A DNA stretch of 64,000 bases from Lama guanicoe. Its lineage: Eukaryota. Below the pieces are notes generated by a model. It was not told the DNA's origin, searched no databases, and worked only from the letters and a program-made list of their open reading frames with translations. Shown one piece after another: positions 18,294 to 63,226 of the stretch. Each line of letters starts with the position of its first letter. The first letter of the stretch is position 1. The position numbers and the translations under genes are program-made. The stretch spans positions 939,320 to 1,003,319 of the forward strand of contig MU053810.1 in NCBI GenBank assembly GCA_013239625.1, read 5' to 3'.

Positions 18294-21200
18294 ACATGCT
18301 TATGTCACCATATCCCTAACACAGGGCCTATATGCTAGTGGCCCGAGAAATATGAATTGAGTAAATTTTTAAAAACTTGATTACATTGCCTCTAACAGCT
18401 GTCTACATATACCCAGATCCTACCATTATAGATTAATACCAACTTAGTATGTGAGTATATATATATATATTTTTTTAAACTTTGTTTTTTTTTAAAGCTT
18501 TTCACTTTACTTGCAACACACCTTATGATTTAGCTATCTGAAAAGGTTAAGCAAACTGTGACAGGTGATTTCAAAACGGATCTGTATTTCTAGAATGGTA
18601 GCTGTAATTCTTTAAATGCCAAGGCTAAAACAGCACCATGATTGTTTTGTATAAAGGTGACCTTTATCACACTGAAGAAAGAGGGAATAGATTTTTCTGT
18701 TACCTGGTGTAAAAGGTTTACGATAATCCAGCAGTAAGTTCTTTGATATGTCTAAGTTAAATTAATGATAGGTTAAGATATAGTAAGAGTAACAATAGTT
18801 TTCAAGCAGAAAATTAGGTCACACTATCTGAAAAGCATAAACATACTTCTCGGGACAGAAGGACTGGAAAATTTAGGGAAGTATGAACAGATGCACACGG
18901 GTCTACATGATTTTAAGGTGCATCACTAATTCCATTTCGTGGGTTATTTGTTTCACAAAGCCCCTTGAAGATAATGAAATTTATCTATAGATTTAGATAT
19001 AAATAATATAAACATAAACATGTTTTACTATAAATGATGACATATAAGGAGTACTTGGTCGTTGTATTTTTATTTTTTAATTAGTTTTGTTTTTATCAAA
19101 GTAATATATGCACTTATTAAAATGCCAAGCTTACCCAAAGTAAGAGAGGTTTGCCACCCTAATCCCCTCCAACCCTTAGTCTCTTTAAGCAAAGGCAATA
19201 ACTTTTAACTCTCTTGCTATTTTTTTCTGTCATTTACATCCATATTTTAAAACAACATGCAAATGTTATTTCTTAATGATTGATTTTAGACTTTAGTTAC
19301 TTCCTGTTATGGTAGTTGACAACATGTCTCTCTTAGACTGCCTTACTCATTTCCCATCACACCCACTGTCTTGATGAACTGTCTTTGGTTTTTACTTATG
19401 CCAGCAGTCAGTGCTCACCTTCCCATGTGAACATTGTTGATGGCCTTCTTTCTGGCACAACCTTTTGTTTTTCTTCTGGAATCAATGGTGTCTCTGTCTC
19501 TTCTCTTTTTCCTCTTCCTCCTTAGAAATCCTGTCTCTTGAATCCTGTCTTCCTCTCTTGTTGTTTTTTTTTTCCTACCTTGTTCTGTTCTAGCACATTC
19601 TACTGTAGCTTACTATGGAAAAGAGCATCCATGATACATTTTCTTCAGTCCTTGCAAGCTCTGAAATCTCTTCATTTTAAACTTATAACTTGATTGACAG
19701 TTTGGATTCAAAATTCTATGTTGAAAGTGATTTTCCCTCAAAATTTTGATATGACCAATTCATTGCTTCCATATCCCCGTTGTTGCAGCTGAGAAATCCA
19801 GGCCCATTTTGATTCTTTGTTATGTAACATGTATTTTCTTACATGAATATATAGCCAAATACAATTTTATGTATAATATATGTATGAACATACATCATAT
19901 ATAAAAATGTTTCATTCTGAAATATTTTAAAAACTATGGAAAAGTCATAGAAATAGTACAAATAATTCTTGTACATCCCTCACTCAGATTCTAGATTTTT
20001 TAAATTATTTTCTTAGACATTTACTCTATTTTTCCTAATTTTTTTTTTTTTTTGGAACACCTGTTAGTGGGATATTGGATATCCTGGGTCAATGCTCAAA
20101 TTTTCTTTTCTCTTCCATTTTCCTGTTTTGGTGTTTTTCATCCACTTCCTGGTAGATTTTGTTTTATCTTTTATCACCTCTATTACTTTCTTATTTCAGT
20201 TAGTTAAATTTTTTTTTAATTCCAAGGATTTTCTGGTTCTTTGACTGTTTCTTTGCTCTAGCAATCTGTTCTTACTGTTGTTTATCAGATGTGCTATCTT
20301 AATATCGTCGCTTATTTCCCTAATGTTATTTTTTTATATCTTCTGTTACTATGTTATTAGCTATTTCTAAAAAAGGTATCTCTGCTTGTTTGAGTTGATC
20401 TGTCTGTTTCAAGTGAGAGGCTGTATCTGTTAGGATCCTGGCAGGTAATAGCTGGCTCACTTAGGAAGAGATGTTTGCGGGGTTAAGGGTGAACAACAAG
20501 GGATGGTGAAAAAGCAGAAGTTTATAGCAGCAAAGAGCAGTTACTGCCCCTTGCCCCAAAGGGCTATGGAGGGAGACATTACTGGGACCTGGAGAGAGCA
20601 CTGGTTAGTCATAGCTGGAGGAGAGGGTTGCCTAAAAGTTGTTACTAAAAAAAAAAATCATTACTATATTTTTTTTCTTGAGCTCGATATATATTTTTTT
20701 CTCATTAAAGGTTCAAAACCAAAAGCAATTTCTCTTTGCAGCAAATATACATTAAAATAGAGTCTCTGTACAGCCAAGGGCTCTGGGCCCTGGCTTGCCC
20801 CATGTCCCTGCCCCCTCCCTGGCCAAACCCAAAAATAAATACAGCGTTATTGCTCTGCAGGGCATAGAGGCAGTGCGCTCCCTGCCCCCTGAAGAGGCTG
20901 GGGGGGGAGCTGATGGGGGAGTCCTGGCCACCCCAGGGGTCCAGGGGCTGGAGCCTGCTTGGAGTTACTGCTTCAAGGGAGGGCAGTAATGCCCAATGCA
21001 AATGATGAGGAGAGGAGCGAAGGGAGCGGGGGCTTTGCTCTCCAAATCCCACTCTTCCAGAGAGGAAGTCAGATTAAGCAGCAGCAAAAGCATCACCCAC
21101 TGGGAGACTGGCTTCCACCCCCTTCCCTCCCCGAGATCAGGCTTCTGCCCCCTCCCACGTCCCCTGCCGCCCCCTATGGCTTCCGCAAGGCCACCTACAC

Positions 21201-21559
21201 TCTCGGGGCACGTTATGGCTTGCGAGGGGCAGCACTGTGCCCAGAGCCTGGACACGCACATTCCCAGCTTCTAACACCCTCTAGGATGGGGGAGGGGAGG
21301 GCATAGGGCCTGCTCCCAGGGGCTGATGGTGTTGCCCTGGCCCTGCCAGCAGGCTGTGGCACTGCCCAGACCCCGGCTCTGCCCATTCGGGGCTGACTCC
21401 ATTGTGGGAGGGTCCTGCCAGCACCCCCACCCGTGCCCACCCCTTGCCTCAGTCCATCATGGCCTGGAGCATCTCCAAGAACAGTTTGTGCATGGGCACC
21501 TTTCCCTCCAGCTTCACTGCATAGAAATGGGCCAGCACTTTGCCCGCTCTCTGGCGAAG

Positions 21560-22470
21560 GAGCGGTAACGTGAGCAGCAGCCTGCCTGCCCGCCGCCGCT
21601 CAGCACCCGCTCCGGGCCCGCGCGCCAGCTTCAGACTCCAGCCGGGCTTCGTGTAGAGCTGCTCGCAGCCGCTCCGCAGAGGGTAGCCACGGCCGGGAGG
21701 CGTCCGTCAGGGCCCGCTGGGTCGGGCGCGGCACACAGCTTCTCGGGCTCAACCACCGGCAGGTGGGACACCAGTGCACTCACTGGGGCTGCCTTCCGAG
21801 GGCCTCCCGCCACTGCCAGAGGACCAGCGGGGAAGGGGCCCGGGACGGGCAGTGGGTCCACCTCGGGCCGCCGCTTGTACCTCTGTCGCCCACCCCGGAC
21901 ACGGTCCGGACGTACCCCTCCTTGGGCACGCCCAGCCGCAGGCACCTGGTGAAGCGACAGGCCTGGCGGGCCTCGCGTCCCCGCTGGGTGATCTCGCACT
22001 CGGAGGCCGGACGGCTGTGCCGGATGCTCCCCTGGATGGGCCTCTTGAAGAAGGCTTTGCAGGCCTCACAGGATGCCACCCCACAGTGGCAGCCGGAGGC
22101 CACACCCCCACAGACCAGGCGGAGGCGTCTGGGCAGGGAGCTGAGCGCCAGCTTCCCGCCACCCTGCTCGCCAGGCCCAGGCCCCACCCTCCTCCTCTTC
22201 GTGGCCTGGGAGGCGGCGGGTGGGAGCTGGGCCAGGGGCCTCAGTCTCCGGGAACCCTGTGGGCTGTCAGGGCTGGCCGGCTCTGCCTTGACGTAGAGAG
22301 GCTCAACGCNNNNNNNNNNNNNNNNNNNNNNNNNNNNNNNNNNNNNNNCTCCGGCAGGGCGGGCGGGCGGGCATGGGGGCCGAGCGGCCAGGAGAGCCGG
22401 GGTGGGCTGGGCTCCTCCGCCGCCGCCGAGATGCGTCCCCTCCCTCCTTGGCGCCCCGGCGGCTTGTAGG
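21560..22470. promoter_or_regulatory. CpG-island-like GC-rich segment (within ESRRA retrocopy)
   Basis: Dense CpG and very high GC by eye against AT-rich, CpG-poor flanks. Regulatory activity not shown. Confidence 0.6.
22310..22348. other. Assembly gap (39 N)
   Basis: Run of N inside the GC-rich ESRRA retrocopy, covering the expected start-codon region. Confidence 1.
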
Positions 22471-24679
22471 ACACGAAAACCTACTATATTGTCTAATAAG
22501 GGAATGCTGCTACTGATACAGCCTGCAGCCCAGCAGAGAGGGAGATTTGACTCCACCTGCCGTCTCTGGCTGATGTCTCCCCCCAGTCACCGAATCCACA
22601 CGGGAGACAGAATTCAGGAGCCTGGGAGGTGGTCTCCAGGTCGCGGCCTCCTGGGTCACACCGCAGTGTAGAGCAGGAAGCGGGTGGCTCTGGAGAGGGT
22701 TCTAGAGGGACAAGTGGCAAGTATCTAGCACTAAGCCTCCTTAAAATCTTAATGATCCTTCGCTTTGCACTTGCCTAGAAATTCATGAGTCTGAACACTA
22801 TATGGTACAATGAAAAAATACTGCTTTGTAGTTACCCTATAGGTGGCTCATCATTGTATAGTGTTTTGGTCACTTCTTTGTCATTTAAAACGAGGAGTGG
22901 TGTTACTGTTTCTAACATGGCCTTCTATACCTGGTGGGGATATATGTACATTCATCACCTCTTGTTCTGCTCATTCTCTGGCAACAGTGCTCATATACTG
23001 AAATTGCAAAGCAGGGGAGGGAAAGAAAGGAAGGGGATGAATTACCCACCCTTCAGTGATTGAGAGTTGGCTGCACCAGACGCGACCAAAAGAAATCTGC
23101 CCCGTGTCCATTTGAATCAAACATATTTATAACTCAGTCCTTTACGTTTGTAACTTAACAACTGAATTAGTTCCATTTAACTGACAGCAGATGGTGTGTG
23201 ATTATTGCCTTCCTAAAAATAATAATTAAAAAAAGCCCGTCAATACTTGTTAAATATGGATTAAGCCAAGGGTTACTGCGACTGCTTGGGTTTTCATTAA
23301 TACAGTTCATTCCATCTGAATTTGGCAATTAAAATGTGTGGAAATCACACAGATTACACATGCATTGTGCATCTTGGCATCTCCGCTTCAAAATGAAGAA
23401 GTTGCAGAGTGTATTCCTCCTGGAAATGGAACTTATTTTTGCTATTTAAGTTAGAAAATAAAATTGTCCCTGTGTAGACATAGGCGGTAGTTTGCATATT
23501 TTAAGAGTGATTATGTTGCTAGGATGCTGTCCTCCAGCTCGGGGGCCGAGGAGGGTTTGCAGCCTGTGCATCTGGCCCGCATCCTCTCCGGTGGAAAGGA
23601 AGGCAGCTCCAGGCTACGGCAAACACGGACTCGCTTACCATCCAAGCAGCAGCTTGAATGTAAATGATATCTTCAACTCTTTAGAAACTGTAACCATGTT
23701 TTCTTTAAAGGTAAATTATTATCCAGCAGGTGTGTCATCCAGTTCAGAAGAATCGAAGTTCCTTTTTAAAACTGACTCTTTGGGTTGAAACTGTAGTAAC
23801 TGTCCTATCGTTTGGACATTTTCAAGATGAAATGGATGTTTGATGGACTGAAACCTGGTGCACTGTATGTTGTAGGAAAAACAATGCAAGTCATTTTTTC
23901 TCAGCCTTGAGGGATTTTGTGTGTGAGTGTGTGTGTGTGTGTGTTTAATGAGAGTTGACTTTTTAGAGAGTTTGGTTGTTACTGTTTTCAGGACTTTGCC
24001 TCGCCTTTCATCTTCATGATGTTTTTTCGGGAAATCTCTGTTTCAGGCGTGGAGCAGGGGTGGTCCGCACTGAAGCTCCCTTTCCTCCCTCCAGGGCTCA
24101 ATTGATCTTTCTGCTCAGTGGATCCATCACTTCCTGCTCAGCTCCTGAGAGATCATCACTCATTTTTCCTCCTGACTGGCTGAGATGCCTCTTTCTTCAA
24201 TTTAGAAAAACAACTTTTGCCAGTGATTTATTTTTTTAAAGAAAGTTTTTAGAAGGAGTGTGTGTGGTCTGTTAACACCCTGAGGTTCAAGAACAGAATA
24301 GGACATATCGGAATGGGAACAGATACAGAAAAAAATACAGGACGGCTGTAAAGGCAGATGAACTTTGTAATTTGAAGGAAATTTCCAAAGAAGCAGGACA
24401 GAAATCCCCATGGTCCCTCATCTAAAGCTGGTCTGACACAAATTAGGGAACATAATACGTTGAACTGTATATAGTTTTTGTAGAAAATCAGCAACTGCAT
24501 ATCAGCAACTTTATTTGATACAACATGATAGTTTAAATTTTTTTTTTAATTAGAATGAACAGGCCTTGGTAACTTACTGTTTTTGGTGGTGAAACAGGAA
24601 GGAGTTAAGTGACTTTGATCAATGTTGATCTTTGGTATTTATCTTGGATTTAAATTCATGGTCATTAACATCAATAAAG

Positions 24680-24925
24680 ACAATAGCTAACGCATAATAA
24701 CATTGTTTCAGGCACAATTCTATGCTGTGTATGTATCTCTTTATCTTTCTCTTTATTCATCTATCTAATCATTGACTCCTCTAGTCTTTGAGAAAGTATT
24801 ATTATTATTCTTGTTTTACGGAGGGTCAGAGAGGGGTTAGCTAATTCGCCCAAATCATGTAGGTGAAAGCTGGTGGAAGCCAGGTTCTCACTTATGCTCT
24901 CTGGCTCCAGAGTCCGGCCCCTAAG
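24680..24925 (-). mobile_element. MIR SINE remnant
   Basis: caatagctaac ... attattattcttgttttac ... ggtcagagaggggttagctaattcgcccaaatca ... ctggctccagagtc core. Confidence 0.6.
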
Positions 24926-25099
24926 CCCCATGTCGTCTCCCAGTGGGCTCTGAATCCCACCCCCATCATATACTTGTCCCTGGTGCACTTCATCTCTCCT
25001 CCTCTCCAGTGGGACTATTTAAACATCTCTCTCCTGGAGCCTCCAGTACCTCCTCTCCTATGCGCATTCTCAGCTCATGACTGCTTTCTAGATCGCTAA

Positions 25100-26235
25100 G
25101 AAAACCGAAGTAATCCGAAGAGAATTTGTGTATGCTCCAGCACTGTTAACACCCTGCCCTCCTAAATCCGCATCTGTGTTTATACTCTGCCACCTCTCCA
25201 GTGACTGTGGATCAGCTGTCCCACTTCAACTGGCCCCGGACACTACAGGACGCCCGCCTTGATCCACACAGCGACACTCCTGCGACAGGTTGCTGCTCTT
25301 TGGCATCGTTAATTTGACCTTTCTTCTGGGTTAGTCTCAAAGACATACAAGCATGTTTTCATTTCTCTCTTCTTAAAAAAAAGAAGCTATTACCTCACAC
25401 CTTTTTAAAAATATATTTTTTTATTGAAGTACAGTCAATTCACAATGTTGTGTCAATTTCTGGTGTACAGCACAATGCTTCAGTCACATAGGAACATGTA
25501 TTCGTTCTCATATTCTTTTCACCATGTTACTACAAGATACTGGATATGGTTCCCTGTGCTATACAGTATAAACTTGTTGTTTATCTATTTTATATATATA
25601 TACTCACAGACATAGAAAACAAACTTATGGTCACCAGAGAGGGAAGAGGATGGGAAGAGATAGATTGAGAGTTTGAGATTTGCAGATACTAACCTCATAC
25701 CTTTTTTTTTTCAGTTGCTCTCTCACTTTCTTCCCCACTATGATAAAACTCTCAGAAAGAGTTACCTATAATCACTTCCCCAAATGCCTCTCCTCCCCAT
25801 TCAGTTTTGAACTCTGAGTAAGCGCTTGTCTGCAGCTCCCGACAAAGTCACCAGTGACTTCCGCACTGGGGCCGTATCCCTCGGTTCCTTCTTTTCTCAG
25901 TCGATGTCTCCGCTGCATTTGGCGTCTTGAGTTCCTGCTTTGATTCAGTTTCTGGAAGGCCACGCTGTCCTGGCTTTCTCCCTGCCTTCCCGCTTGTTGC
26001 CTCTCTGCCACTTTTGTTCCTTATCTTTCTGACCTTGAAACGCTGGAGTGGTCCAGGATTCAGTTTCTTTTTCTCTTTACACTAACCTCAGGGCTTCCAT
26101 CCTTTCTCATGCCTTTCAATATTGTTTGTATCAGCTTTTCTCGGGGGCCGTTTCAGATCCCATTGGACTACCTTTTGTTTCAGCTCTGCATTGCCTTCAA
26201 CCTGCACATCTGCATCTTTTGTTTTGGGCTCCCTG
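25100..26235 (+). mobile_element. L2 remnant
   Basis: aaagtcaccagtgacttcc ... gcatttggcg ... tcctggctttctcc, typical of the L2 3' region. Confidence 0.55.
25407..25691 (-). mobile_element. Short L1 3' end with 5' inversion, inserted in an L2
   Basis: 25407-25600 is the L1 3' terminus on the minus strand; 25601-25691 is the adjacent upstream L1 segment in plus orientation. TSD acctca(c/t)accttttt at 25392-25406 and 25692-25706. Confidence 0.8.
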
Positions 26236-26237
26236 CA

Positions 26238-26549
26238 TGCCGTAGACTGTGTCCTCATAAAATTCATATGTTGAAACCAAATCCCCAAGATCTGGGAGAT
26301 GAACAGGTCATGGTGAGTGAAGTTGGTGCCCTTATAAAGAAGACCTCAGATGGCTTCCTTATCTCTTCTTCATGTGAGGGCACGGAGACCATGGCTGCCT
26401 GTGGACCAGGAAATGAGCCCTCACCGGACACTCAATGTGCCGACACGTTTGGCTTGGACCTCTCAGCCTCTGGAAGTAGGAGAAATAAGTTCTGATCGTA
26501 AGCCACCCAGTCTAGTGTTTTGTTACGGAAGTCCAAATGGACTGAGACA
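26238..26549 (+). mobile_element. MLT1A-like MaLR solo LTR
   Basis: aaattcatatgttgaa; gcccttataaaga; agaaataagttctg...aagccacccagtcta; ends gagaca. Confidence 0.8.
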
Positions 26550-29414
26550 TCGCCACCTGGAGACCTCTCTGCTTGTGGGACCCACCCCCATTTGTGCAAC
26601 CCGGGCTTAACACCACCAGGGCATGAGGTCCAGCAGATAAATTCTCTCCTCTTTTCCACTTTTTGGTTCTCCTATCATGGCCAATTTTGCTATTCCATCC
26701 CCTGGAGCTTTAGTTTTCATTACTACTTCACAATTCTTCTAAGAAAGGGAGCAAGCAACGAATATCCTTCCCCTTTTCCTGTCAATACTCTGAACATAGC
26801 CTTGACAAAAATCCATCTCTTCATTGGATTCCAGAGCCGTCCACAACAACACTGTCATACGATCTTACTTCAGGTCAGATGCTCTGTATCTATCTACTGC
26901 ATTAAATTGTACTTGCTGTATACCTTTGGATTGTCTCATAAGCAATTTCTCCCTTTCTGTAATGTACCCGCACATAATAAATGAGGGCTTTATTTTCCTT
27001 TACTAATTTTACTCCCTACTTTCTGGCGAAACAGTTACAGTTATCTCGCCTTCCATCTAGGTGCTATTCCAACTTCTAAAAATGATTTGATCTTCTCTTT
27101 ACCTTAGTCTGTGAATCTTTCTAATTTCTCCCAGCCCTCCTTGCTTTTGTTAATCACCTGCCTCGAACATACCTTTCTGTGTCTTGCGGTGAAAGTCTCT
27201 GACCTGTACTTTCTCACCCCAACCCCATATCATACACGTCTTATGTTCTCTGACTCAGAACTACAGTTGAATAAAATCCAAAGACCTCTGAACACAAGCC
27301 TTTAAAAGGCTGAAGCAAAAGTAGCTCAAAAGAGAGAAGAGAATGGTGAATGGCGTGAGAAACACCAGATGTGTCTTTGTTTGCCACTAAAGAGCAAAAA
27401 CAGAAGGAAAAAAAAAACACCTTTATTTTCACTCAGACATCTTCCTGTTCTCTTTCAAACTTTGGCAGCTCCCTTCCATGAAGTTTTGTACTAATAGCAA
27501 GCAGCCTGTCCTCTGGCTCCATTCCTCCCACTCCTACCTCTGCATTCTCGCTGAAGGATAAAGGGCGAAGGGCAAGTACAAAAGCAAATGTCAAGAAATC
27601 ATGCATCACTAAGATTCAGTCAAAACATTCGGCGTATCTCAGGTCTGATTTGTTTGTGTCGCTTCTGCCTTTAAGCTTCCAATGCCGGGTCTTTGGGGTG
27701 TCATCTGGAGGGATGCAAGTTCTGGTCATTTTTAGGTAACAGAAGTAGCGTGATCCAAGTTCCACTTTTGTTCTAAACACAAACACATATGGACTCCCAC
27801 GCAGTCAGTTTTCTTTTTTATAATCACGTATTTCCTGAACTGGTCACCTTCACGTCAGACTGCCCATCCTCGTTGCCATCTTGTTCGTACTACTTTCATC
27901 ATTCCGTGATCTAATTCCTTCTCTCTGTGATCATTATTATTTGGTGCCACTCTTCTCTCGCTGTCTTTGTCAAAAGCTGGCTCCCCAAACATTACAACAA
28001 AAGCTTTTGATAAGACAGATTTGTCGCTGAATTTATTGCTTACCACCGCAAGGGGGAAGGCCACCTCGTCTATTGAGTATACAATAGCATCGTGTCTAAA
28101 AAAGCCAATGAATTGGAAATTGGAAATTTGGGTGAAGGCAGGTCTTTCAGTGCAAGGACTTGGGTAACAATCATGATATAATAGTTCAGGCTGATTAGAC
28201 ACAGCAAGGTGAAGATTTTGAGGCAGAAATTCAAAGAATCTTATGGTGCAAACCCAAGACAGTCCTGGAAGAGTCACGCATTGCTAATGAAGACAGTAGA
28301 AGATGGTAGAGCCGTGTTAAGGAAGAGGGTAGGATGTGGCTCTGATTTGGACACCCAGGCTGAGTGATGGGGTTGACAGTTTTGGTTCTCACCGTCAACC
28401 TCCTATATATCCTTGGAGAACTAAAGTGCCTAAAAATAAATGTGCTTTTTCTGACAGCCTCATCATGAACAGAAAGATTATTTTCTATCCAGAAGTGGAA
28501 TTGCTGGGTTAATTTTTTTTGGATACAGATTGAAAATGTTTTTTTTAAAGCTCAGTATAAGACATTAAATTAGGAACCTGATTCTGTCATCTGAATTATT
28601 CGCTATTCTACACAGCTTCTAGTTATTGGGAAAATGTCTTCAGAAGTCCCTCAACCAAGCCATTGGTGAGGTCGAAGCAGAGGACAGTAGTGTGCAGTTA
28701 ATTACCTACCTGCTTTCACTTTGTCATCATGTATTTTGGAATTATTGGCAACTTTTTTTTTAACAAGCACTGAATTGTAAATAACTGGAATTACATCAAA
28801 CACACATTTTCCCAGAGAAATCCCAGTAACATCAGAGGTTACTGAAGAAGCAGATGAAAACAGAGCTGCTTTCTTTCTTAATGGCTCACATACTTTCTTT
28901 GAACTATTCTAAAATCATTTCCTGGATAGGTATCAAATCCGAGCCTGCAATTTGCAGAGTCCCCGTTGCTTATTCTCTGTGAATACTTTCCCTGTGAGCT
29001 CACTCTGTTGTGCACTGGGATACATTGATGAAGAAGATCTTAACCCTGTCTGTTCTACCGGGGAGCAGACACATGGACCATTACAATGCACTCTGATAAT
29101 TGGCATGGAATTCATATGAGGCAGGGTTTCACTTGTGTGGTGGCTGTATTCAGGAATCTACCAGCCTTGAGACTTGGCACAGATGACTGACTGGGATGTC
29201 TTCCTTGGGTTGTCCCAAGGAAGATCTGAACTGGTTTAGGGGCACTAAGTATGTTGCTGCCATCTACCAGATGGGTGCAGAGCTAAACTTATGGATGAAT
29301 GGAAGTCTTAGACTTACATGGAGTGAACAGAAAAGTAAAAGTATAGACTGATCCATTTTAATTAAAAAAAAACTCACAGTGATAGTGGTTCTGAATTCTA
29401 CGACCAGAGTCCAT

Positions 29415-36304: not shown

Positions 36305-36598
<294 letters not shown>

Positions 36599-37347
36599 TA
36601 GATACCTGGCCCGGCACGGAAGCCATTCATATGCTTTTGGTGTCAATCGGAAAGTAAAATATTCTTTTAAATGAAGTGACAGATCCACAAAGTAATGAAA
36701 TGGCTTCAGATGGCTAAGATTCTAACTGGATGGAATGCATTTTGAATGAGGTTTTACTGATTATAAAGGAGTGAGATGCAGAAAGGAAGCTTTCAATGGT
36801 ATATTAGTGAATCAAGATTCAAAAGAAGTTTATTATTGCAGCCTTAAAATGCAGCGATGGAAATTGTGAGCTTAAGTTGGAATTCAGTTTGGAAATACTT
36901 TAAATGAATTTTAGATTGGGTGAGAAGACTTTATTTTTGCTTATAGGATGCTACCACCAAGTGAGTTGGTACCTACCGTACACAGCACAATCTCTGACTT
37001 GGATCCTTTGATTTGAGGGTAGGGGCGTTAGCAAAAGCTTCAGAGAGTGTACAATAACATTGACTTAATTATCTGGAGGTGCTAAGTCTAGCATTTTAGA
37101 GCAATTGACTCAAACGTATTTTCTGTTTTGTATTCAGATGCAATATTAATCAGTGCTTCCAGAACTCTTTTCTTCTCCTACGTGAGGTTCTACATGTTTG
37201 ATTTTGCTATTTTTGGCCTTTTATTCACATATTCAGTTGTTATGATGTTAAAACAAGAAAAGTGATGACTGAAAAATTTCTTCTGTCTAGAAGGAACCAG
37301 GTGAATGATGTTTCTCCCGTAGTTTGGGGTGGCCATCATGCTGTTAG

Positions 37348-37700
37348 GAACGATTTGTTCTTTTTCTTCAGGATTGCTTTGGCAATTCTGGGTCTTTTAT
37401 GGTTCCATATAAATTTGAGGGTTATTTGTTCCACCTTTGTGGAAAACATTGTGGGCAATTTGGTAGGGATCCGATTAAATCTGCAGATTGCTTTGGGTAC
37501 TATGGTGATTTTTAACTGTATTATTTCTTCCAATCCAAGATCATGGGATATCTTTCCATTTCTTTAAATCATCTTCAGTTTTCGTTATCGATGTTTCATC
37601 GTTCTCAGAATATAAGCCTTTCACCTCCTTGGTCAGGTTTATTCCTGTTTGGTGTGATTTTGAAACGGATTGTTTTTTCCCTTTCCCTTTCTGACAACTC
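37348..37700 (-). mobile_element. L1 ORF2 internal fragment
   Basis: ORF 37336-37533 has [15 protein letters not shown]...[22 protein letters not shown]. Confidence 0.85.
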
Positions 37701-40700
37701 ATTGTCGAATACAAAACACATCCAAAGACAGGGATTCATTTGTATCTGTCCAGTTTCCCCAGAGAGGCTACACGTGGATGGACTGCCCTTTCTCCGGCCT
37801 GTCGGGGAGTAGTCCTTGCTGTTCTTTGGTGAGCAGCAAGGAGGAACCACTGCGTGGTTTGACAAGAAGTGCAAAGTCCCTTCCATTATTAGTCGCTACG
37901 AAGCTTCCTTTCGCACGGTTGCTGTGATAACACGCATGGTCCTGCTTCAGGGAAAAGGTTAATGTGAAAAAAGGAGAGAGCCGCTGAGTGGGAAAGGTCT
38001 CGGCTGCATGGAAGATTCTAATAATGCCAGCCTTAGAGGAAAGTGAAGGAACAGGTCTGCCAAATAAACAGATTTCATTTTAAATGTTAGCACTGGGAGA
38101 TCACCTTTTGACTTTTCATTTTCATTTCTGAGAAGTTTCCACTTTGGTATTTTATTTAAAATGTGGACCGTAACCTGTAGATAAAATTGAGAATCGTTCT
38201 AAAGCATTTCTTTGGTGCACCCACTAGGGGGAAACAATTGTGAAGGAATATTGATGGCCAAGCAATTTCTCTCTTGAAAATCTGTGATGCTCAACTTACA
38301 AGATTTTTTTTTCCCCCAAAGCTAACCTTATAATGATGCTAAAGTCATTTTGGAAAAAAAAATTCTGTGACCCTCTTTGATGGCTAAATGGTGTGACCTT
38401 TAAAGAAACAGATAAATATGTTGACTTTTTAAAATGAAATTGGCATAGTGGAAGTTGAGTTTCAGATGCAACTGATTCTATTAATTTTTTTTGAGAATTT
38501 TCTCATTTTACATGATGAACCTGTTTTTCAGAATTTTTGAACATTTTTTAAACTCAGTATTTTTAAAAGATTTAGGTTTAGAAAGACTAGATCTTCACAA
38601 TGGAATAAATTCTATATACATACAATATTGAACACAATGAACCGGGAGCAAAAAAATAATTCTGAGGTGTAACAACTGTTTGATTCTAGTGTTGACAAGA
38701 ATCTTTCTTCATTAGAACTTATTGATATCCTGAGCCAGGAAATAAATGTGGGTATGTTTTAATCATGTGTCTAGTGTTGCATTGTCTGTTTCTGTGTGGA
38801 TCCCAATTGCCTGGTCTTCCTCATCCTATTAAGGACAGCAATAGTCTAGCTTCTCTTCCAGCATTTGCTCCAAATTCTTTGATGTGCAAAGGCTTTACTC
38901 TGTTTTATTTTTACTTAACAATTAAGAGAGTAATATTACACTTGTTACTGTCATTCAGTCCAAGTCAACCATAAGATTATAGAAACTGTACTTATTCATA
39001 CGGTGTTGAGATATGTCCGATGAAGTGGGTGCATCTCTACCACTGGAGTATTGCCAGAAAATGTTCTCAATTACTTTAGCATTCCTGAAGTTGGTATTCA
39101 AGTTCACTGTTACATGTGTTTATTTTTAGAGCTAAATTTATTGGGACTCAAAAGGGAAAAATATATTATTATTCTGACAATTTCTCTCCTACCTCGATGT
39201 CATGTTTAAGAATTTTTCCATTTGGCCTAGTATTTTTGTAAGGAAATAGGAATATATTTTTATGCTTTGCTTTGATAGAATATATCATAAAGTTTTGAAG
39301 CTTTACCTAACTTCTTTTGTAAACTTTATTGGCTTTTGGAATGAGGATTTTTGCAGAAGGTATTTACTTCATATAAATCTAAATTAATATATGAAATGTG
39401 TGAAAATTACCTTAAAGGTGCATTCTCAAAATCTGAGAGGTGACAGTGTTTAATCAAATGGTATTAAACATTGTTTCTGCAGTAGGATGACAAATGTCAA
39501 CTACTTTTAAAAGAATTGTAAATGTTAAGTACTTTTAAAAGAATTGTAAAAGTTCACTGAAGTACTTGAAGATAAGCATTAAGAGAATGAAAAATGAGAT
39601 TTCATGTGTAATATGTATCTTACCACTACATTGGATACAAAATATTTTAAGCATATTTTTATGAAACAACTAAAAATTCTATTCACCGTAGCAAGATTTT
39701 AATTCAGAATTCAATGTCTGTTTCTCTTCACATTCCAATTATAACAGCTCTAACTTTCCTAGAGGCAATGGTCAGAAAGGGGTCATATACAAGGAAATAA
39801 TTAAAGAAAAAAAAGAGTTATTAAGGTTTCACGATTTGTCACCAAAGGGATCTACCCTGAAGATTCTGAAAGTGCCAAAGCAGGCTCGTATGATGTGCAG
39901 TTAGAATGTGATGCTGTCCCTACAAGTTTGTTCAGAAGGAGCAAGAACCCCGGAGGGGAGTCACTACATGCAGCACCCATGTGGTCTAAAGGATGGAGGG
40001 AAAAGGAAAAGGGAGACCAGAGGGAGAAAGGACTGTTGAAGATGGACTCTGAATGGCCTGGAAGGTCATTTGATAAGAAAAGTAAACACCTGTATGTAGC
40101 ATGTCCTCATGCTATCTCATAATAAGTTTTTTTGTTTGTTTGTTTTTGTTTTTTCTGGTAATGAAACAATCTTCAAGGTCTTCTGGACACTGAAGGCATA
40201 ACTGTGGAGTCCTCCAGAACGTACAGCCTTGCGGTCGAGCTGGCAAGTCACAGCCTGGGGATCCTGCCCCGGTGGCCGCTGGTGGGGACGAGGCAAACAG
40301 TGAGATTATGAAGATTCGTCTTCTTAATTCTGAAAGTTGGAACTCAGGTCCTAACTTCTAGGAAGGCCCAGAGAAATCTTTATTTCTCTTGGGTTGGATA
40401 AAATAATTTGGTTTCAAAAGGGATCAGATTCTCATTCTAGGATTCCAGTCCCTAAAATGACCAAAGAGGATTCTGGTTTCTAGGTCCATAAGGCTTATTA
40501 CACAAAAACATGGAAAATGTTCACAGACTCTAAGTCTCTGCCTACATGGGTGCCATGGTTTGGAGTCCCAGGACATTTACCCTGATTTCACGAAACAACT
40601 GAAGCACACTGAATCAAGTGCTCAATGAAAAACAGCAAAATATCTGTTTTGTTTATTGCATTGGGCAGACCTGTTAGTACCATTTTGCATTAATGTTTCT

Positions 40701-49539: not shown

Positions 49540-49821
<282 letters not shown>

Positions 49822-54092: not shown

Positions 54093-56066
<1,974 letters not shown>

Positions 56067-62828: not shown

Positions 62829-63226
<398 letters not shown>

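Follow-up and report, generated by a model that had tools for sequence, protein, structure and literature searches.

An ESRRA retrocopy in the guanaco genome with an apparent lasting fixation bias towards G/C, and the possible part of its landing place

Where do PRDM9-independent recombination hotspots come from in mammals that carry PRDM9, and is it the sequence or the place that makes them? A dead gene copy bears on this question, and dead retrocopies have the merit that their starting sequence is known from the parent, that no protein constrains them and that they have many insertion sites, which makes them a direct read-out of fixation bias. The stretch of DNA analysed, called the window hereafter, comprises 64,000 nucleotides of a Lama guanicoe contig (MU053810.1, positions 939,320 to 1,003,319 of the forward strand; C1724 below). 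The first-pass annotation had quoted from it a translation, which is present on the minus strand, and had read the locus as an ESRRA retrocopy altered almost exclusively from A/T to G/C, the footprint of a gene-conversion hotspot seeded by an imported CpG island. How much of this stands, and what part might the place have?

The ESRRA copy and its core

A search of the same genome found the seven-exon ESRRA parent (L001) on contig C3434. Its exon-7 peptide is identical to a PDB ERR1 chain over 85 of 85 residues and its DNA-binding domain reads as do the aligned PDB chains (solved human or mouse ERR1), so the amino-acid differences arose in the copy. The copy itself (20662..22490, minus strand) extends from 5'UTR to poly(A) remnant and matches L001 exon by exon without introns, exons 2-5 and 7 abutting; a short A run beyond the parent's 3' end is what is left of the poly(A), and a 9-bp target-site duplication (a shared 9-mer at 20662 and 22482) brackets the whole. 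Frameshifts, a deletion of about 350 nt and the replacement of three cysteines of the DNA-binding domain by arginine have cost it its coding capacity. It is a processed pseudogene, an L1-mediated retrocopy with every one of these hallmarks, and in this the earlier reading was right.

From its 5' end the copy consists of a remnant of parent exon 1 (5'UTR; 22349..22478, minus strand) with two deletions, the only piece of CpG island to have been imported; an assembly gap of 39 Ns (22310..22348) that hides the start codon and the join of exons 1 and 2; a core (21560..22309, minus strand) covering parent exons 2-5 and the first portion of the exon-7 part, CpG-island-like now (GC 0.72, CpG o/e 0.64); and a 3'UTR (20675..21446, minus strand) whose changes are balanced and which serves as internal control. 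Within the core the deletion junction, at 21676..21680 (minus strand; placed from overlapping alignments to exon 5 and exon 7), has short microhomology and marks the loss of the end of exon 5, exon 6 and the start of exon 7. Some peculiarities may be recorded here. About 97 bases of the copy's 3'UTR (21157-21253) are missing from the parent assembly at a G-rich spot (L001 1703-1711), by deletion in the parent or by an assembly flaw; a small separate contig (L003) equals the copy at 455 of 456 bases; and an old LTR-like remnant, which we take to be of MLT1 type, seems to have been split by the insertion (20420-20655 and 22490-22735), with 7 CpG in the half at the copy's 5' end and 1 in the other.

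With the same-genome parent as reference, and W>S standing for A/T>G/C and S>W for G/C>A/T, the core has W>S changes at 50 of 256 A/T sites and S>W at 2 of 494 G/C sites (Fisher p 1e-22; GC* 0.98), with 2 W>W and 6 S>S changes in the neutral classes. The amino-acid changes listed by the first-pass annotation (V70A, K76R, C79R, C115R, C131R, D84G, Y89C, Y91C, T106P, Y113H, K125Q, K129E, M144V, L145P and, further on, F172V, N194S and H220R) are all real and all W>S relative to the parent, which does not itself carry these bases. At 0-fold sites of the core the counts are 36/180 against 0/291, and at 4-fold sites W>S stands at 11/54, a rate equal to that at 0-fold or non-synonymous sites, so that decay of the parent contributes little. 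Would the excess survive the counting of synonymous and UTR sites? At synonymous sites of the copy it does (13 W>S, 2 S>W); in the 3'UTR (12/280 vs 12/388) and in the exon-1 remnant (4 vs 4), both unpolarised, there is none. The excess is a local peak that fades in the 3'UTR.

CpGs were said to have been kept or gained, and over the aligned core 33 CpG in the parent (o/e 0.41) have become 63 in the copy (o/e 0.64): the parent core is no island and the copy's core became one in place. The exon-1 piece went from o/e 0.91 in the parent to 0.82 in the copy. Upstream of the copy CpG is also raised (22736..28500; o/e 0.38 vs 0.17-0.23 in the rest of the window). Per kilobase, values of 0.32-0.48 are found there and at 36500-38500, vs about 0.2 elsewhere, and to judge from these ratios germline methylation may be lower upstream of the copy and at the start of the host gene considered below.

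Camelus orthologues and the reality of the changes

The copy borders an N gap, and consensus errors there, decay of the parent, or A-to-I editing of the template RNA might between them be thought to have produced the pattern. This is scarcely credible, given the parent's match to solved ERR1 chains, the equality of 0-fold and 4-fold rates, and what the dromedary shows. A dromedary record annotated as ERR1 (P0002) is the orthologous copy, so the insertion is older than the split of the window's lineage from Camelus; camelids have been apart for more than 11 million years according to a passage of PMC13751797. Common to the window and dromedary copies are the deletion of one codon and, among amino-acid changes, 8 of W>S and 3 of G>C type. 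In the three-way split of 150 core codons, which deals in amino-acid changes and has one ambiguous codon at the start of the dromedary model, 16 W>S and 1 W>W fall to the window lineage, 3 W>S with 1 W>W and 1 S>S to the dromedary, and S>W is 0 on the shared, window and dromedary branches alike; the 32 codons outside the core contain 2 S>W on the dromedary side. Bias was thus fivefold stronger in the window lineage than in the dromedary (16 vs 3 W>S, p 0.004), and it acted before and after the lineages split, three branches in all, so that it is to be called long-lived.

Word shares add a further, indirect check. Of the 24 runs listed, 14, which come from 6 studies and carry 4 organism labels, contain 0.74-0.84 of the sampled words, more than the 0.63 of 31-mers that are free of any core W>S site; this surplus, together with the changes common to window and dromedary, argues against consensus error. 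For the 16 changes private to the window lineage the run word shares alone, an indirect measure, speak against error. RNA runs had word shares of 0.05-0.14, which have no bearing on expression. A hyper-edited retrocopy was also considered and rejected: per site T>C is as frequent as A>G, and changes were added on separate branches, so the dismissal of ADAR editing of the template in the first-pass annotation holds.

Dead copies of this sort stand as proteins in Camelus databases (P0002, P0097, P0104 and P0105, under the names ERR1, PACSIN3 and p20-like). There is a warning in this, for such copies can pass for fast-evolving genes, and both of those in the window are annotated as dromedary proteins.

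Further copies, controls and the matter of place

The second GC-rich block of the window, 33 kb from the ESRRA copy, is a PACSIN3 retrocopy (54100..56061, minus strand; parent L005) with FCH and SH3 domains. Its peak at 55080-55660 has W>S at 50/197 vs S>W at 5/379, and within it the bin at 55300 has 23 of 67 A/T sites changed W>S with 0 in reverse; the rest of the coding sequence is near balance (11/238 vs 7/382). The accession of its dromedary orthologue (P0097) is next to that of the ESRRA orthologue, on the same 26.3-Mb contig. Retrocopies of ARHGDIA and POP7, both with the W>S signature, were found in this genome 0.27 Mb apart on contig C3427; they had been pre-selected, and the clustering is accordingly not that of an unbiased survey. 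The W>S peaks of the ESRRA, PACSIN3 and ARHGDIA copies are about 600-800 bp wide. Over whole coding sequences the 0-fold counts of W>S, non-CpG S>W and CpG S>W are 36/218, 0/275 and 0/40 for ESRRA; 44/339, 4/353 and 4/71 for PACSIN3; 33/210, 0/139 and 1/31 for ARHGDIA; and 15/126, 2/99 and 1/36 for POP7, which taken alone has no significant deficit of S>W (2 seen vs 1.9 expected).

On the Camelus side the POP7 copy, compared with that of the wild camel over 121 codons, has 10 W>S and 0 S>W shared and only 1 W>S with 2 S>W on the Camelus branch; PACSIN3 outside its peak has 3 W>S and 5 S>W there, the skipping of three frameshifted blocks having left only 34 core codons in its three-way comparison. 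For ESRRA, POP7 and the outer part of PACSIN3, then, the bias on the Camelus branch is weak or absent. A smaller population size may account for it, gBGC (GC-biased gene conversion) being reported to scale with population size, or a fading hotspot may.

How do retrocopies fare elsewhere? Twenty-six controls were gathered by family search, namely 2 copies of KRT7, 3 of KRT18, 12 of RPS2 and 9 of actin, where the keratin (KRT7, KRT18) and RPS2 names are those we presume for the families. They were drawn from 12 of 15 non-parent RPS2 matches and 7 of 21 filament matches; L053, L055 and L056, for which there was no parent, were left out, and 4 of the 12 RPS2 copies (identity at least 0.976) are too young to judge. 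An intact old actin retrogene (L006) and further actin-related loci were left out. The 0-fold control set is actin only, that of RPS2 and the keratins being all-site and unpolarised. The nine actin copies amount to about 5 independent insertions: L007, L008, L013 and L017, and likewise L011 and L018, share flanks over 3-4 kb and so were duplicated after insertion. As observations in their own right, L008 still has its frame open and in one of its bins 7 W>S changes face 0 S>W, and in the gamma-actin-like parent (L020) the first 363 coding bases lie in one exon (867-1229) where the beta-actin-like parent has an intron, from intron loss or as an assembly effect.

In none of the 20 aged control copies on other contigs, many of them CpG-richer, is there a W>S peak. 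Their all-site GC* is 0.23-0.60 and their loss of parental CpG 9-37%; the four affected copies have 0.82-0.91 and 3-7%. Pooled at 0-fold sites, the affected copies have W>S at 128/893 and non-CpG S>W at 6/866; the nine actin copies have 137/3385 and 124/2429, with CpG S>W at 167/750. Scaled by W>W plus S>S changes, 54 W>S would be expected in the four copies vs 128 seen and 66 non-CpG S>W vs 6 seen, the latter expectation being too high if hotspots raise S>S mutation; a cautious clock, at half the 3'UTR rate, still expects about 8 S>W in the ESRRA core vs 2 seen.

An imported island as the cause is not borne out in the form proposed, and the idea of one as seed is only partly right. The parent core stands at o/e 0.41, the exon-1 piece, which was an island, has no excess, and CpG-denser imports elsewhere (actin, RPS2, KRT18) decay. 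Actin parents (0.70) are CpG-richer than ESRRA (0.39) or PACSIN3 (0.52), and in RPS2 and KRT18 copies the decay is steep at the CpG-dense 5' ends (2 vs 21, 4 vs 22, 2 vs 20). What seems to decide the fate of a retrocopy is its landing place, a factor that the first-pass annotation did not foresee.

What can be said of the place? A probable first coding exon of a host gene, an open frame with a signal-peptide-like and an LDLa-like stretch by motif match, lies at 36305..36598 (plus strand). An exon with the first part of a MAM domain (Pfam PF00629, E 1e-5) follows at 49648..49785 (plus strand), and a candidate for a later MAM part at 63029..63190 (plus strand; PF00629, E 0.013, below the curated cut-off). 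More MAM exons of the host are found on C1724 at 1.07-1.30 Mb. This many-MAM gene is presumably MALRD1; an exact look-up of two of its exons gave no match. Some 14 kb separate the probable first coding exon from the ESRRA copy, which is upstream of it and head to head with it, and the PACSIN3 copy is within the intron before the 63029..63190 candidate. A dense run of CUB exons occurs at the end of C3427 and on C2405; one CUB exon of C2405 is cubilin, and cubilin is also the best match of an exon of C3427. We take cubilin and MALRD1 to be about 2 Mb apart on human 10p, and from this human gene order we infer that C3427 adjoins C1724, an adjacency for which no supporting paper was found. In passages of PMC6598621 alpaca chromosome 35 corresponds to human 10p, which is also listed for chromosome 16; PMC6371769 yielded no passage on chromosome 35. 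The wild-camel POP7 copy is on a 27.7-Mb contig, and since that contig and the 26.3-Mb dromedary contig come from different assemblies, one chromosome for all four copies is not proven. By these comparisons the four affected copies probably share one small chromosome, in a stretch of about 3 Mb out of a genome of 2050 Mb. In this putative 3-Mb AT-rich 10p-homologous stretch, 4 of 4 GC-rich retrocopies examined have a W>S peak. Two controls sit 2.6 Mb (L052) and 3.4 Mb (L051) further along C1724 and are weak or flat: L052, KRT7-like (3.58 Mb), has GC* 0.67 and L051, KRT18-like (4.39 Mb), GC* 0.48, each with 12% CpG loss. Their intermediate values suggest that the effect fades with distance.

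With a host gene so near, selection for G/C or CpG content, the copies having become promoters or enhancers, comes to mind: the ESRRA copy is upstream of the host's first exon with the CpG-raised stretch between, and a passage of PMC11323403 gives an adaptive reading of retrogenes that are GC-rich at the 5' end. However, in four copies that are unrelated and frameshifted about one fifth of A/T sites changed regardless of codon position and CpG context; acting base by base, selection would need to be strong, and the bias nearly stops on the Camelus branch. We regard such selection as highly improbable.

Gene conversion, kinds of hotspot and kindred systems

Mutation bias is another matter, for unmethylated or transcribed islands have peculiarities of their own: aberrant TDG repair turning TpG/CpA into CpG (within the power of TDG, in a passage of PMC4041421), hypermutation at start sites (reported for human ones in a passage of PMC13712754) and error-prone synthesis at A/T. 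Core transitions are about twice as frequent at TpG/CpA over all sites (24/118 vs 15/138, p 0.04; in the cores also 24/81 vs 15/116, p 0.006). There is besides a skew of G>C over C>G, 26/1034 vs 8/869 overall (p 0.009): S>S changes are mostly sense-strand G>C in the ESRRA core (7 vs 1) and in PACSIN3 54500-55740 (16 vs 5), and actin controls are without it (17 vs 18 at 0-fold sites). Damage to single-stranded DNA could be its source. Against this, the context effect is gone at pooled 0-fold sites (43/334 vs 57/559, p 0.23), so aberrant TDG repair is not the main cause; W>S transversions are raised as well (28/893 in affected copies vs 25/3385 in controls); the Pol-eta-like WA/TW context is not enriched in the ESRRA core (9/54 vs 30/202); W>W plus S>S changes are barely raised (8/750 in that core, 4/668 in its 3'UTR); and a mutation bias would leave non-CpG S>W changes in place. 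It is very unlikely as the main explanation.

Strands are equal, A>G occurring at 85/659 sites (12.9%) and T>C at 58/488 (11.9%; p 0.65), with no switch between the two seen around peak centres in what are small numbers. With W>S raised, transversions included, and non-CpG S>W nearly absent, the gBGC-like fixation pattern proposed at the outset is what the copies display. ESRRA mRNA was reverse-transcribed and inserted in AT-rich DNA before the split from Camelus. The near absence of reverse changes implies that the bias was on for most of the copy's life, and the substitutions point to an apparent fixation bias towards G/C. Its time-averaged strength B is estimated at about 3-5, from W>S coming to 2.8 times what the clock predicts and to about 4.5 times the rate of the 3'UTR. 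A bias that is long-lived and has G/C>A/T changes removed speaks for gBGC rather than for mutation bias or editing, and gBGC of one kind or the other, PRDM9-independent or PRDM9-led, is on this pattern very probably the cause.

Which kind? Known PRDM9 motifs are frequently GC-rich. Should this part of a small chromosome be AT-rich and subject to much recombination, GC-rich inserts might have offered the best matches to one PRDM9 allele after another and been struck repeatedly. In the PRDM9 candidate of this genome (L037) the SSXRD, PR/SET and last exons are open and the 5 zinc fingers, arrayed in tandem, vary at contact residues, and PRDM9 looks intact over its SSXRD, PR/SET and zinc-finger exons; the sharp difference in bias strength between lineages is also what episodic hotspots would give. 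However, passages of PMC13186367 and of PMC12290510 describe PRDM9 hotspots as short-lived, and 6 non-CpG S>W changes vs 66 expected require a bias on for most of the life of the copies and over several branches; moreover, GC-rich retrocopies elsewhere show nothing alike. We hold PRDM9-led conversion to be unlikely. Hotspots at hypomethylated islands are stable, and active in many PRDM9-bearing mammals, according to passages of PMC11161765; the long life of the bias makes a PRDM9-independent hotspot the most likely kind.

The probable state of affairs is therefore that, in a domain of a small chromosome which is permissive and poor in islands, GC-rich inserts act as PRDM9-independent hotspots. 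A GC-rich insert would be unmethylated and open in meiotic cells and would receive double-strand breaks; these breaks would be repaired with a G/C bias, the hotspot being centred on the insert; conversion would add CpGs, so that the insert remained island-like; and the place, not the imported sequence alone, would permit all this. In ESRRA 0 of 40 CpG were lost vs 13 expected, a retention that does not by itself demonstrate low methylation, since CpG>TpG changes are purged by strong gBGC as well. The copy works like a PRDM9-independent hotspot and is to be counted as a candidate for that class.

Among known systems the closest are the default hotspots at hypomethylated CpG islands (Joseph et al. 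2024, PMC11161765), where a narrow, long-lived GC* peak likewise goes with a working-looking PRDM9. The islands of that study are old ones at promoters, with orthology to hotspots of mouse and dog, whereas the sites here are new, made by mRNA insertion and clustered; camel, alpaca and retrocopies are not mentioned in its main text, though a species list may stand elsewhere, and Camelus, Vicugna and Lama do not occur in four of its supplementary files. Dog CpG islands, with W>S of 0.26 vs 0.06 genome-wide (Berglund et al., PMC4350167), are alike in a rate of about 0.2-0.26 per site, several-fold over background, and in that gBGC builds new intergenic islands; dogs differ in having no PRDM9, and the passages of that paper make no mention of retrocopies. 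In mouse Fxy in the pseudoautosomal region a new place similarly brought rapid W>S fixation that wrecks a conserved protein (passages of PMC12290510), but Fxy works as a gene and lies in a wide zone of obligate crossover, whereas here there are peaks of less than 1 kb on dead inserts with AT-rich flanks. The imprint-type retrocopy islands of RB1 (Rademacher et al. 2014, PMC4122923) also became islands from mRNA insertions, with the landing site setting their fate; in passages of that paper those islands are kept and have methylation effects, and neither gene conversion nor recombination is mentioned, whereas here the CpGs were gained by W>S fixation bias. Synthetic CpG islands in gene deserts (Wachter et al. 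2014, PMC4204011) show that GC/CpG-rich inserts can take on island chromatin by themselves; they are engineered and in stem cells, with no recombination read-out, and here sequence content alone does not separate affected from unaffected copies. Literature searches covering mainly journals without subscription listed no account of retrocopies driven W>S, either in camelids or in clusters. The ESRRA copy by itself is a clean example of a known process; what is new is the clustering and the difference between lineages.

A bolder proposal can be offered tentatively. A megabase AT-rich domain of camelid chromosome 35 might turn any GC-rich insert into a lasting PRDM9-independent hotspot, where the same insert would elsewhere be methylated and decay; the island built by conversion would then sustain the hotspot, and the strength of the domain would differ between Old World and other camelids. 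If affected copies do cluster in one domain, a survey of retrocopies would make a cheap map of hotspot-permissive DNA in species that lack recombination maps, and, if the domain reading is true, retrocopies would be natural reporter transgenes that map the birthplaces of new default hotspots.
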